Sequence record: KM606994
Length of the DNA: 64,000 nt
From: Escherichia phage RB3
Reading direction: 5' to 3' (one strand)
Shown piece after piece: positions 3,424 to 7,413 of the stretch (position 1 is the first letter of the stretch; every line of letters begins with the position of its first letter). The notes beneath the pieces are model-generated. The model was not told the DNA's origin, made no database searches, and was given only the letters and a program-made list of their open reading frames with translations. Position numbers and translations under genes: made by a program.

Positions 3424-3499
3424 TGGTCGAGGCAGTAGGGATCGAACCTACGACCCAGGACTTAGAAGGTCCTTGCTCTTCCTTCTGAGCTATGCCTCG
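3424..3499 (-). tRNA. tRNA-Arg (anticodon UCU)
   Basis: Manual fold: acceptor CGAGGCA/TGCCTCG, anticodon loop CTTCTAA, T-loop GGTTCGATCC, encoded CCA. Confidence 0.85.
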
Positions 3500-3503
3500 T
3501 ATT

Positions 3504-3578
3504 TGGCGGACGTGATAGGATTCGAACCTATAACCAATCGCTTAACAGGCGATCGCTCTGCCATTGAGCTACACATCC
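3504..3578 (-). tRNA. tRNA-Asn (anticodon GUU)
   Basis: Manual fold: acceptor GGATGTG/CACGTCC, D-arm GCTC-AATGGCA-GAGC, anticodon loop CTGTTAA, T-arm ATAGG-TTCGAAT-CCTAT, CCA. Confidence 0.85.
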
Positions 3579-3582
3579 AAAT

Positions 3583-3669
3583 TGGTGGGGAGTGATGGAG
3601 TCGAACCACCCGAGTCGCAATGACAATGGATTTACAGTCCACACCGCTACCTCTACGGGATAACTCCCC
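3583..3669 (-). tRNA. tRNA-Tyr (anticodon GUA), class II with long variable arm
   Basis: Manual fold: acceptor GGGGAGT/ACTCCCC, anticodon loop CTGTAAA, long variable arm, T-loop TTCGACT, CCA; 87 nt. Confidence 0.8.
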
Positions 3670-3678
3670 TAATTAATT

Positions 3679-3753
3679 TGGTGGCCCTGGGTGGAATTGA
3701 ACCACCATCTGGCGATTATGAGTCGCTTGCTTGAACCTTCCAGCTACAGGGCC
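3679..3753 (-). tRNA. tRNA with CAU anticodon (Ile if lysidine-modified, otherwise Met)
   Basis: Manual fold: acceptor GGCCCTG/CAGGGCC, anticodon loop CTCATAA, T-loop GGTTCAATTCC, CCA; sits where T4 has tRNA-Ile. Confidence 0.85.
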
Positions 3754-3754
3754 T

Positions 3755-3830
3755 TGGCGCTGATTGACGGAATCGAACCGCCGACATCCTCATTACAAGT
3801 GAGGTGCTCTACCTACTGAGCTAAATCAGC
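3755..3830 (-). tRNA. tRNA-Thr (anticodon UGU)
   Basis: Acceptor GCTGATT/AATCAGC, D-loop TAGCTCAGTAGGTAGAGC, anticodon loop CTTGTAA, T-loop GGTTCGATTCC, CCA. Confidence 0.9.
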
Positions 3831-3835
3831 AAAAC

Positions 3836-3925
3836 TGGCGGAGGCGATAGGATTTGAACCTATGAGTCGCCGGAGCGACTGCCGGTTTTCAAGACCGGTG
3901 CATTAAACCACTCTGCCACGCCTCC
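3836..3925 (-). tRNA. tRNA-Ser (anticodon UGA), class II
   Basis: Acceptor GGAGGCG/CGCCTCC, anticodon loop CTTGAAA, long variable arm, T-loop GGTTCAAATCC, CCA; 90 nt. Confidence 0.9.
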
Positions 3926-3927
3926 AG

Positions 3928-4001
3928 TCTCCATACAAGGATTTGAACCTTGGACCTCCTGATCCCAAATCAGGCGCTCTACCAAACTGAGCTACACGGA
4001 G
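3928..4001 (-). tRNA. tRNA-Pro (anticodon UGG)
   Basis: Acceptor CTCCGTG/TATGGAG with G-U pairs, D-loop TAGCTCAGTTTGGTAGAGC, anticodon loop TTTGGGA, T-loop GGTTCAAATCC; CCA not encoded. Confidence 0.9.
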
Positions 4002-4011
4002 TAAATTAAAT

Positions 4012-4085
<74 letters not shown>

Positions 4086-4090
4086 AAATT

Positions 4091-4177
4091 TGGTGCGAGA
4101 AGTGGGACTCGAACCCACAAGGAAATCATTCCGCAGCATTTTAAGTGCTGTGCCTTTACCAATTTGACCATTCTCGC
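4091..4177 (-). tRNA. tRNA-Leu (anticodon UAA), class II
   Basis: Acceptor GCGAGAA/TTCTCGC, anticodon loop CTTAAAA, long variable arm, T-loop GGTTCGAGTCC, CCA; 87 nt. Confidence 0.9.
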
Positions 4178-4178
4178 G

Positions 4179-4251
4179 CTGGGAATAAAGGACTCGAACC
4201 TTTGCATCCTGGAATCAAAATCCAGTGCCTTACCAACTTGGCTAATTCCCA
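4179..4251 (-). tRNA. tRNA-Gln (anticodon UUG)
   Basis: Acceptor TGGGAAT/ATTCCCA, anticodon loop TTTTGAT, T-loop GGTTCGAGTCC; CCA not encoded; 1 nt from tRNA-Leu. Confidence 0.9.
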
Positions 4252-4348: not shown

Positions 4349-4636
4349 TTACCATTTATGATAATACGTATTTACGATACATTCAAGACCCAAAGGATTC
4401 TTGAAAATATCATATTCAAGAGGACCTTTTTCTGTTTCAATAAAGAAATCAAAATTTACTATATTAAATTTACGGTCTTCCTTCACTAATTTAACCTGAG
4501 AAGATGAACGGTCAATGTAAACCTTTTCAACTTCAAAACATGTTAAAATGCCATAATCATCAATCAAGTCTTTAGCTGCTTCTTGATCATATTTATATCC
4601 ATTTTCAATGGATGATACTTTAGCATAAAGAATCAT
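4349..4636 (-). CDS. hypothetical protein (95 aa), ip-locus accessory gene
   Basis: ORF tightly packed after the 136-aa ORF (2-nt gap); no recognisable motif. Confidence 0.5.
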   Translation of the reverse strand: MILYAKVSSIENGYKYDQEAAKDLIDDYGILTCFEVEKVYIDRSSSQVKLVKEDRKFNIVNFDFFIETEKGPLEYDIFKNPLGLECIVNTYYHKW

Positions 4637-4638
4637 TA

Positions 4639-5049
4639 TCAGCCTCTATCAACGATAGTATGAGTATGGGCATTTACGATTTGCCACCAATCAAAGCGAT
4701 TGGAACCATAATCCGGTTTATTTTCATTTTCTTTAATGATATCACGTAGTTTATCTTCTGTTTCAGCATACGCAATTAAATCATCATATCCACCACAAGG
4801 ATAATAATTATCACCTGCAAATAAAAGAAAATTTACCTTAGATGGATTTACGTAATAATGATCTTTAGGGTATTTAGTTCCTCTCCAATCAGTTACTTCA
4901 ACATAACGATAAGAAAATCCATTTTTGCTTTCAATCCAACTCCACGCTTCAAAAGGAGTATTAAAAACTTTATCAGGTATTAAATTACCTTCAAAATGAG
5001 AAGGATTTGCATAATCCCCAGCATAAACATAATATTCGTTAATACTCAT
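4639..5049 (-). CDS. hypothetical protein (136 aa), aromatic-rich, ip-locus accessory gene
   Basis: ATG start directly abutting stop of upstream 61-aa ORF; Tyr/Trp-rich, no known motif. Confidence 0.55.
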   Translation of the reverse strand: MSINEYYVYAGDYANPSHFEGNLIPDKVFNTPFEAWSWIESKNGFSYRYVEVTDWRGTKYPKDHYYVNPSKVNFLLFAGDNYYPCGGYDDLIAYAETEDKLRDIIKENENKPDYGSNRFDWWQIVNAHTHTIVDRG

Positions 5050-5235
5050 TTATTCACCTTTAGAAATTTTATCCATAACAATAGCGATTAAACCAATTAA
5101 AAATGCTACTACAAGTGAAAACACATTTTCTGCTGTAGTCAATAATCCGCATATAAATCCAACAAACATTGAAAAACTAAAAGCAGAAGCAGAAATTGCA
5201 ATAGCAACATTTCGAATTAATTCACAGCGTTTCAT
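5050..5235 (-). CDS. small membrane protein (61 aa)
   Basis: ORF track 5050-5295 trimmed to ATG at 5235 with GAGGAG Shine-Dalgarno; two hydrophobic helices (VAIAISASAFSFSMFVGFICGLL, VVAFLIGLIAIV). Confidence 0.45.
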   Translation of the reverse strand: MKRCELIRNVAIAISASAFSFSMFVGFICGLLTTAENVFSLVVAFLIGLIAIVMDKISKGE

Positions 5236-5263
5236 TTTATTCTCCTCGGTAGTTGATAGGGTA

Positions 5264-5293
5264 ATAGTATCACTACTAAAACCCCATGTAAAC
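5264..5293 (-). promoter_or_regulatory. T4-type early promoter, repeat copy A
   Basis: Minus-strand GTTTAC at 5293-5288, 18-nt spacer, TACTAT at 5269-5264; shares about 55-nt core with copies B and C. Confidence 0.45.
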
Positions 5294-5311
5294 AACTTTG
5301 TGAATTATTTA

Positions 5312-5599
5312 TTACAAAAGATTTTTAGCAATAATCTTGAGATGTGCCGCAGAAATGTGTTTAGCTTTAAACAACGCAGTTTCTTCAGCAGGAGAGATAA
5401 CGATTGTAGCACCATCCTTTTTAGCAGACCACCCATCACCTAGGTAAACAGTACCTTTGATTTCTTCACCATCAACCAGACTAATCATCGGTTTACCTTC
5501 TCGTCCTTTATTTGCTTTAATAACTTCAGAAGTAAGAGTAGCTTCAGTAATAGTAGAAACCGGGGTAGTCGTAGAAGTAAATTCTTTGAAAGTTTTCAT
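5312..5599 (-). CDS. ipI: internal protein I-like head protein with N-terminal capsid-targeting sequence
   Basis: 95 aa; N-terminus MKTFKEF...ITE matches internal-protein targeting sequence with gp21-type cleavage site; position between tRNAs and 57B as in T4; assignment to ipI by position and length only. Confidence 0.6.
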   Translation of the reverse strand: MKTFKEFTSTTTPVSTITEATLTSEVIKANKGREGKPMISLVDGEEIKGTVYLGDGWSAKKDGATIVISPAEETALFKAKHISAAHLKIIAKNLL

Positions 5600-5629
5600 T
5601 TTATTTTCCTAATTAATTTTGATGAGATA

Positions 5630-5659
5630 ATAGTATCATAACTAAAACCCCATGTAAAC
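5630..5659 (-). promoter_or_regulatory. T4-type early promoter, repeat copy B
   Basis: GTTTAC at 5659-5654, 18-nt spacer, TACTAT at 5635-5630. Confidence 0.45.
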
Positions 5660-5671
5660 AACTTTGTGAAA

Positions 5672-5929
5672 TTATTTTAAATCTTCTAATCGTTTCTTCA
5701 TCTTAGAACCATTTTTAGCGATTTCACCTGCATCGGAGCATAATGCTAAAAGTGCTTTAACTTTCGTTTGGTCTCCTTTAAAAGACGAAGGATCGACTGC
5801 AGCAGCAAGTTCTTTAATACGGGAGAAAAGACGCTCAGCTTCAGCTAAAGCCATTCCAAGCTTTACTTCCATACCGTGAGAAGATTCAGTGATAGTAGTT
5901 TTTGTAGCAAACTCTTTGAAAGTTTTCAT
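5672..5929 (-). CDS. second capsid-targeting-sequence internal-protein candidate (85 aa), divergent mature domain
   Basis: N-terminus MKTFKEFATKTTITE almost identical to the ipI-like ORF through the predicted cleavage site, rest unrelated; own promoter copy. Confidence 0.6.
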   Translation of the reverse strand: MKTFKEFATKTTITESSHGMEVKLGMALAEAERLFSRIKELAAAVDPSSFKGDQTKVKALLALCSDAGEIAKNGSKMKKRLEDLK

Positions 5930-5960
5930 TTTTATTTTCCTAATTAATTTTGATGAGGTA

Positions 5961-5990
5961 ATAGTATCACTACCTCATCAGTATGTAAAC
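5961..5990 (-). promoter_or_regulatory. T4-type early promoter, repeat copy C
   Basis: GTTTAC at 5990-5985, 18-nt spacer, TACTAT at 5966-5961. Confidence 0.45.
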
Positions 5991-6002
5991 AACTTTGTGA
6001 AA

Positions 6003-6687
<685 letters not shown>

Positions 6688-6688
<1 letters not shown>

Positions 6689-7413
6689 TATAGTACCTTT
6701 AGTGTATTTTTAATTTTAGAAAAAAGTTCTTCAAGAGAACCATCGTTTGTAATTACTAAATCGCCATCACGAATTGGCAATCCAGCTTCTGTAATATGTG
6801 TATCATTGGATTTTTGACCAGGACGAACTACATGAATTACTGTAGCACCCATCGCCCTAGCCGCATCCATTTCATGATCTTGACGGGTATCAGGAACGAT
6901 ATAATAATCATAACCTGAGTTAAATTTATCAAGATAATCTAAAGCAAATAATTTTACCCAGTACATGCGGTCGAAGTTATTAACAATCAAATCCGTACCT
7001 AGGGCTTGCATCAGACGACGGACTGACCATTGATCTTCAATATTATTTATAACGTCAATAATCTTGTTAAATGCTATGGAATCAACTGATTCTTGTCCTT
7101 CGTCATCAAAAACAAACACACCCTTAATTGGGCTTTTACCATTAAGATAGCAAAATGCTTGTTCCATAATCGTGATTACTTCTAATTTAGTCAGATTTAA
7201 ATTAGTCTCACGATCATAGTCAATTCCTTCAAACTCTTTACGAGTTAAGCAAGGATAGTCAGTGTTTGTTGCAAATACTCCCCATGCATAAGCCAATGCA
7301 TCCTTAATAGGACCAGCAAGTTGATATTTAACTGCAGAATAATTATTCATGATAAAATCTGCAGTAGTATCCTTTCCACTACGTTTTACACCGCTTAAAA
7401 AGATTAGTTTCAT
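6688..7413 (-). CDS. 1: gp1 deoxynucleoside monophosphate kinase
   Basis: 241 aa; P-loop GVKRSGKDT near N-terminus; T4 gene order 3-1-57A. Confidence 0.9.

Follow-up and report, generated by a model that had tools for sequence, protein, structure and literature searches.

The window analysed here is a stretch of 64,000 nucleotides from Escherichia phage RB3 (sequence record KM606994). The gene of interest, ip5, starts with an ATG codon (5929-5927), ends with a TAA stop (5674-5672) and is preceded by an AGGA Shine-Dalgarno sequence (5938-5941) located nine bases 5' of its start. It belongs to the following series of minus-strand genes and intergenic elements:

4349-5235, minus strand: tRNA.2, tRNA.3 and tRNA.4, neighbours of ipI and ip5
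5236..5311, minus strand: third cassette copy, upstream of tRNA.4 (repeat copy 5233-5321), more diverged, 65% identity over 89 nt
5312..5599, minus strand: ipI, 95 aa, T4-type internal protein I (PF11634, E 7.3e-54 over residues 20-95; phrog_4363)
5600..5671, minus strand: second cassette copy, between ip5 and ipI (repeat copy 5599-5687), 88% identical to 5930-6018
5672..5929, minus strand: ip5, coding for the 85-aa internal head protein Ip5, stop codon included (from the list of open reading frames, phrog_3499 and identity to RB15 Ip5)
5675..5884, minus strand: predicted mature Ip5*, codons 16-85, 70 aa, 7.5 kDa, pI 9.2 (computed and modelled)
5885..5929, minus strand: Ip5 propeptide, codons 1-15, MKTFKEFATKTTITE, capsid-targeting, with a predicted gp21 site I13-T14-E15, shared with IPI
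5930..6002, minus strand: cassette upstream of ip5 (repeat copy 5930-6018), with the 57B stop, a promoter-like site, a stem-loop and the Shine-Dalgarno sequence
6003-6461, minus strand: 57B, directly upstream of ip5
6458-6688, minus strand: 57A, followed by gene 1 (dNMP kinase) and gene 3, also on the minus strand

Three direct repeats of 89 nt are found upstream of tRNA.4, ipI and ip5, respectively. Each copy of this cassette combines a TTTACA-17-TACTAT promoter-like site that has an upstream TG with a stem-loop spanning the -10 box. In the ip5 copy, the two promoter boxes occupy positions 5989-5984 and 5966-5961 with 17 nt between them; the same site is located at 5658-5630 in the ipI copy, and the promoter-like site of the tRNA.4 copy at 5292-5264. 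The stem-loop before ip5 (5952-5979) has a 13-bp stem over the -10 box and a folding energy of -20.5 kcal/mol (z -5.0). In an alignment with T4, ip5 and the T4 ipI gene share an identical upstream region over 100 nt. The gene order is 57B-ipI in T4 versus 57B-ip5-ipI in the window, and the difference amounts to a single insertion of 331 nt relative to T4 that comprises the ip5 body and a second promoter and leader; the ip5 cassette is exactly one such 331-nt repeat period. The ipI gene itself differs from its T4 counterpart by only seven substitutions, which are synonymous, and the PF11634 (IPI_T4) domain covers exactly the mature IPI*, starting right after the ITE19 motif.

The ip5 gene thus belongs to the polymorphic IP locus flanked by 57B and tRNA.4, which is one of two such loci, the other being located between e and denV. 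At the same location, T4 has ipI, T2 has ip5-ip7, T6 has ip5-ip6, RB15 has ip5-ip9-ip7-ip8 and Shigella phage CM8 has ip5-ipI-ip8, the cassette next to ip5 being ipI here and in RB14, ip7 in T2, ip6 in T6 and ip9 in RB15. Promoter and stem-loop elements of the IP locus, as well as their modular shuffling, have been described previously (PMC2839356). They resemble the promoter-early stem-loop (PeSL) cassettes of RB49/phi1-type phages. These, too, are repeated intergenic units in which a promoter is combined with a stem-loop covering its -10 box and with a Shine-Dalgarno sequence; they flank small accessory genes and were proposed to mediate modular shuffling. However, the T-even elements are considered analogues rather than homologues of PeSLs, being based on T4 early promoters and having AT-richer stems without polyG/polyC stretches (PMC2839356). 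This organization suggests that the IP locus diversifies via recombination between repeated cassettes and not via point mutation of single genes. In CM8 (NC_054939.1, 70431-72824), the ip5-ipI unit is present twice, with a shortened 57B (246 nt as annotated) between the two copies and Ip8 thereafter, which may represent either a real cassette-mediated tandem duplication or an assembly artefact.

A late promoter motif, TATAAATA, was sought in the regions adjoining ip5 and none was found there; the promoter upstream of ip5 is of the early sigma-70-like type. The nearest minus-strand occurrence of TATAAATA lies at 7044-7051 (minus strand), inside gene 1 and upstream of the 57A-57B-ip5-ipI series. 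It could provide for late read-through of the internal-protein genes, which themselves have early-type promoters only.

The preliminary description of this DNA presented the 85-aa product as a candidate for a new injected effector. The protein is not new, since it is 100% identical to Ip5 of RB15 (CAA84462, GenBank Z35082.1), RB14 and T6, which was deposited and named long ago, and T2 encodes the same protein with one Ala missing. In all four phages, RB15, T2, T6 and RB14, it is encoded in the same place, directly downstream of 57B. The orthologue is annotated as Ip5 in RB14, RB5 (in a note, "Ip5"), T2 and T6, and the same name is used in phages RB32 and RB70. At the family level, Ip5 falls into phrog_3499, "internal head protein", with a full-length match (E 1.2e-49, residues 1-85 of 85). 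By megablast, the 901 bases queried at 5200-6100 are 100% identical in RB5, RB6, RB7, RB9 and RB10 and 97.9% identical in RB14, all of them T4-like Tequatrovirus phages. Among 50,697 phage records searched by tblastn, 495 encode Ip5 or its paralog over at least 80% of its length, including 176 at 99% identity or higher, and the first match is Z35082.1, "Bacteriophage RB15 DNA for Ip5, Ip9, Ip7, Ip8". With 495 records encoding it or a paralog, Ip5 is among the most widespread internal proteins. Ip5 owes its name to the scheme of Repoila et al. 1994 (EMBO J 13:4181). Later accounts that cite this work report many further Ips in T-even phages (at least 10, and more than 30 variants by 2007), which were recognized by a characteristic N-terminal packaging signal, are otherwise unrelated and occupy two polymorphic loci with flanking promoter and stem-loop elements. 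On the basis of these sequence identities, we assign the 85-aa open reading frame to Ip5, a protein known by name since the 1990s and an ordinary component of T2/T6-type phages.

The shared leader that the preliminary description noted in the 85-aa frame and its ipI neighbour was borne out by sequence comparison. In a single BLASTP comparison with the 95-aa IPI, residues 1-22 of Ip5 align with residues 1-26 of IPI (14 of 26 positions identical, one 4-residue gap, E 1e-4), whereas beyond this leader no further alignment was obtained and the PF11634 domain of IPI is absent from Ip5. The common segment consists of MKTFKEF, a Thr-rich spacer and TITE. A six-frame scan of the whole 64 kb with the expression MKT[FYW][KQRE][ED]F matched only ip5 and ipI, in both cases at the first residue, and a looser form of the expression again retrieved only these two frames at residue 1. 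The architecture of a leader followed by an unrelated mature domain is therefore real and beyond chance.

The prohead protease gp21 cuts after L/I-X-E, and the propeptides of internal proteins are 10-19 residues long (PMC9026906). The leader ends with I-T-E in both proteins, at Glu15 in Ip5 and at Glu19 in IPI, so the proposed gp21-type site of Ip5 corresponds to I13-T14-E15, after which the precursor is probably cleaved. Phe4 and Phe7 of Ip5 form the aromatic pair expected of a capsid targeting sequence. According to the same review, the first 10 residues of IPIII are enough for packaging; among leader residues, those at positions 4 and 7 are important for targeting, as are those of the cleavage motif for processing (PMC9026906). 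Having F4, F7 and I13-T14-E15, Ip5 thus shows every feature by which an internal protein is recognized at the sequence level.

We further compared Ip5 with 14 other internal proteins (T4 IPII and IPIII, IPI, Ip7, Ip8 and Ip9 of RB15, Ip6 of T6, Ip10, Ip7 and others of VR25, and proteins of G8). All fifteen start with MK(T)(Y/F)xEF and have a leader ending with [LI]xE at residue 10, 15 or 19. Significant pairwise BLASTP similarity between the mature domains was found only for true orthologues or paralogs, and the mature domain of Ip5 matched significantly only its own Ip5-like paralogs. A match of 24 aa between Ip5 and an 86-aa internal protein of phage G8 (E 0.005 in the 15-sequence database) was attributed to chance, given the multiple comparisons. 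As for the prediction that this architecture implies packaging in the head and injection with the DNA, the leader, the cleavage site and the unrelated mature domain agree with the published description of the family; what did not hold in the preliminary description is the novelty of the protein.

The closest comparison within the window is IPI, which has a leader of the same type (MKTFKEF...ITE), the same locus and promoter cassette, a similar size and pI and, presumably, the same mode of delivery. The two proteins differ in the length of the propeptide (19 residues in IPI versus 15 in Ip5) and in their unrelated mature domains, the BLASTP alignment stopping at IPI residue 26 and Ip5 lacking PF11634. 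The fold of IPI* consists of two beta-sheets flanked by helices (PMC3012670), whereas Ip5* was modelled as all-helical with moderate confidence. The T4 proteins IPII and IPIII (Ip2 and Ip3), which are virion proteins and belong to the anti-restriction class, are likewise small and basic and have a CTS-type leader with an [LI]xE site. Unlike Ip5, they have a 10-residue leader, MKTYQEFIAE, are encoded between e and denV and show no similarity to its mature domain.

At the nucleotide level, all differences between ip5 of RB3 and its orthologues are synonymous in the comparisons with RB14 (10 of 10), RB15 (10 of 10) and T6 (7 of 7), giving 27 of 27 together, and 12 of the 13 differences from the CM8 gene are synonymous as well. 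This exclusively synonymous divergence from RB14, RB15 and T6 shows that ip5 is a selected gene, conserved under purifying selection. When 1.84 billion representative proteins were searched exhaustively with phmmer, only three clusters at 50% identity were retrieved, namely Ip5 and two groups of 94-aa paralogs; the Ip5 family is therefore confined to this phage lineage.

The Ip5-like paralogs, exemplified by VR25 gp128 and G8 gp123 (RB69ORF127c type), are 48-54% identical to Ip5 over the whole length. They share with it a 15-residue leader, in which residues 13-15 are L-N-E and M1, T3, F7 and E15 are invariant down to 48% identity, and two motif blocks of the mature domain, KLG.AL.EAE.L..RI.ELA and EIAKNGS.MK.RLE. 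The paralogs differ from Ip5 in their length of 93-94 aa, due to a C-terminal extension, and in their location in the second IP locus, right after the lysozyme gene e, whose end is overlapped by their start by 14 nt; they also lack a promoter cassette of their own. Since these paralogs have no cassette and are diverged at the DNA level, the conservation of their leader reflects selection on the protein rather than DNA homology maintained for recombination. The overlap with gene e and the lack of a cassette suggest that expression of the paralogs is coupled to that of e.

One segment of the family, ELAAAVDPSS (about residues 42-50 of Ip5, 5780-5806, minus strand), which corresponds to the predicted hairpin loop, is prone to indels: one Ala is missing from it in T2 and three residues in RB70, and a 171-kb ENA contig has a frameshifted 50-aa version of Ip5 that diverges exactly at this segment.

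The mature part of Ip5 contains 13 Lys and Arg versus 10 Asp and Glu residues, corresponding to a net charge of +3. AlphaFold2 modelled Ip5 as an antiparallel two-helix hairpin (helices 17-44 and 54-84, no strands) with a moderate mean pLDDT of 71, using a shallow alignment of five near-identical sequences; residues 1-12 scored below 50, consistent with a disordered N-terminus. A Foldseek search with this model against PDB and BFVD gave no match at E <= 0.001. Its top matches, the LSD1 tower and de novo designed hairpins, are generic helical hairpins and were set aside as uninformative. A PDB sequence search returned nothing below E 0.7, an NCBIfam search assigned no family and the Pfam family DUF7890 was discarded as a sub-threshold match (13 bits versus a cut-off of 26). 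The structure prediction and remote-homology search that had been recommended for this protein thus produced an all-helical hairpin model, while the search for relatives by fold or sequence was uninformative.

Two further matches to the gp21 motif lie inside the mature part, LAE at residues 28-30, followed by A (5840-5848, minus strand), and IKE at residues 38-40, followed by L (5810-5818, minus strand). Both are within the first predicted helix and invariant in the Ip5 family, whereas IPI* has no such internal site. Because of these two matches, the size of the final Ip5 product is uncertain and would be less than 70 residues if they were used.

The anti-restriction hypothesis for the IP locus has been standard since Repoila et al. 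1994, as later papers cite it. T4 injects IPI*, which inhibits the type IV restriction enzyme GmrSD of E. coli CT596, and IPII and IPIII inhibit GmrSD-ECOR21 and GmrSD-ECOR17, respectively. Each of the three proteins Ip1, Ip2 and Ip3 was shown to inhibit a different GmrSD type IV enzyme, without cross-protection (Silas et al. 2025). The proposal that Ip5 is an anti-defence effector is in line with this standard hypothesis and with the activity of the three T4 proteins, and the assay against defence systems suggested along with it has been partly performed. When ip4-10 were expressed against a panel of GmrSD enzymes, no reproducible inhibition was observed (Silas et al. 2025), the "ip5" of this series being taken as the same protein from the shared nomenclature. 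T2 and T6, which are native carriers of Ip5, are restricted by GmrSD-ECOR17 and GmrSD-ECOR21. Our search of the open-access literature found no mention of Ip5 of T4-like phages and no virion proteomics or functional data on it, and a time-resolved omics paper on T4 does not discuss internal proteins. It should be noted that the literature and GenBank have contained the gene, its leader, its locus and the idea of an anti-defence role since the 1990s, so that they carry little weight as a discovery.

The most plausible explanation of these observations, to which we assign a probability of about 0.8, is that ip5 belongs to a set of interchangeable cassettes that encode internal proteins in T-even phages, and that its product would be packaged, cleaved by gp21 and injected, and would likely block one host nuclease. 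Based on the biology of T4 IPI, IPII and IPIII, the promoter and 5' leader that serve ipI in T4 would also give rise to the Ip5 precursor, whose MKTFKEF segment, with its aromatic Phe4 and Phe7, would dock it on the prohead scaffolding core. Next, gp21, the prohead protease, would cut after I13-T14-E15, and the released Ip5*, a putative basic helical hairpin of 70 residues, would stay among the packaged DNA. Ejected into the cell together with this DNA, Ip5* could act before phage gene expression, presumably, by analogy with Ip1, Ip2 and Ip3, by binding and blocking one specific host nuclease that attacks DNA with glucosyl-hydroxymethylcytosine; this nuclease would not be among the GmrSD variants tested so far.

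Since Ip1, Ip2 and Ip3 each block one GmrSD enzyme, the function we would tentatively favour for Ip5 is the specific inhibition of another modified-DNA nuclease, and its strict sequence conservation argues for some specific partner. The negative result of the ip4-10 panel and the restriction of T2 and T6 suggest that the target may be something other than the variants tested, or may not belong to the GmrSD family at all. A tentative version of the latter proposal is that Ip5* might be an injected inhibitor of a non-GmrSD host defence, e.g., a glycosylase or other sensor of modified DNA. If true, a non-GmrSD target would mean that the internal proteins of T-even phages counter more than type IV restriction. 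The target of Ip5 would in any case add one pair, and possibly a new class of target, to the map of restriction conflicts between T-even phages and E. coli.

An alternative explanation retains packaging and injection and dispenses with a specific host target: Ip5* would serve mainly as a counter-ion or packing protein, and the variety of internal proteins would be largely neutral turnover of cassettes. The basic character of the mature protein (pI 9.2), the contacts of internal-protein lysines with DNA phosphates in T4 heads (PMC3012670) and the negative outcome of the ip4-10 GmrSD panel are compatible with such a role. On the other hand, a net charge of only +3 is small for this purpose, the 27 of 27 synonymous substitutions and the motifs kept in paralogs of 48-54% identity are more in keeping with a specific binding surface than with bulk charge, and all three internal proteins of T4 that were tested turned out to be specific inhibitors. 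We therefore consider a purely structural function unlikely.

Less probable still is the scenario in which Ip5 acts early in the cytoplasm as an accessory protein and is never packaged, its leader being a by-product of the DNA homology involved in cassette recombination. It would agree with the early-type TTTACA-17-TACTAT promoter with TG, with the lack of a late promoter next to ip5 and with the open-access literature having yielded no virion proteomics on Ip5. However, the identical 100-nt promoter and leader region drives ipI in T4, the product of which is a proven virion protein. Moreover, the diverged e-locus paralogs retain M1, T3, F7 and E15 and keep [LI]xE at residue 15 despite having no cassette. 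Finally, the idea that the frame is open merely by chance or is what remains of a decaying gene, which its short length and the lack of a Pfam or NCBIfam family might bring to mind, is refuted by its occurrence in 495 phage records over at least 80% of the length (at least 99% identical in 176 records), by the exclusively synonymous substitutions in three comparisons and by the presence of a Shine-Dalgarno sequence, a promoter and a full-length PHROG family.

Two observations concern the neighbourhood of the packaged-inhibitor candidate and its cassettes. The product of 57B (6003-6461, minus strand), labelled as "RNA ligase" in RefSeq and PHROG, matches the Pfam family PF23474, "Anti-CBASS protein Acb1", with E 2.7e-60, and thus a known anti-defence gene adjoins the internal-protein cassettes. 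On the other side of the locus, beyond tRNA.2, a tight cluster of ten tRNA genes was identified at 3424-4251 (minus strand), with specificities for Arg, Asn, Tyr, Met/Ile (CAU), Thr, Ser, Pro, Gly, Leu and Gln. In the T4 segment used for comparison, the homing endonuclease gene segB is located beyond tRNA-Ile, whereas the RB3 window has tRNA-Tyr, tRNA-Asn and tRNA-Arg in its place.
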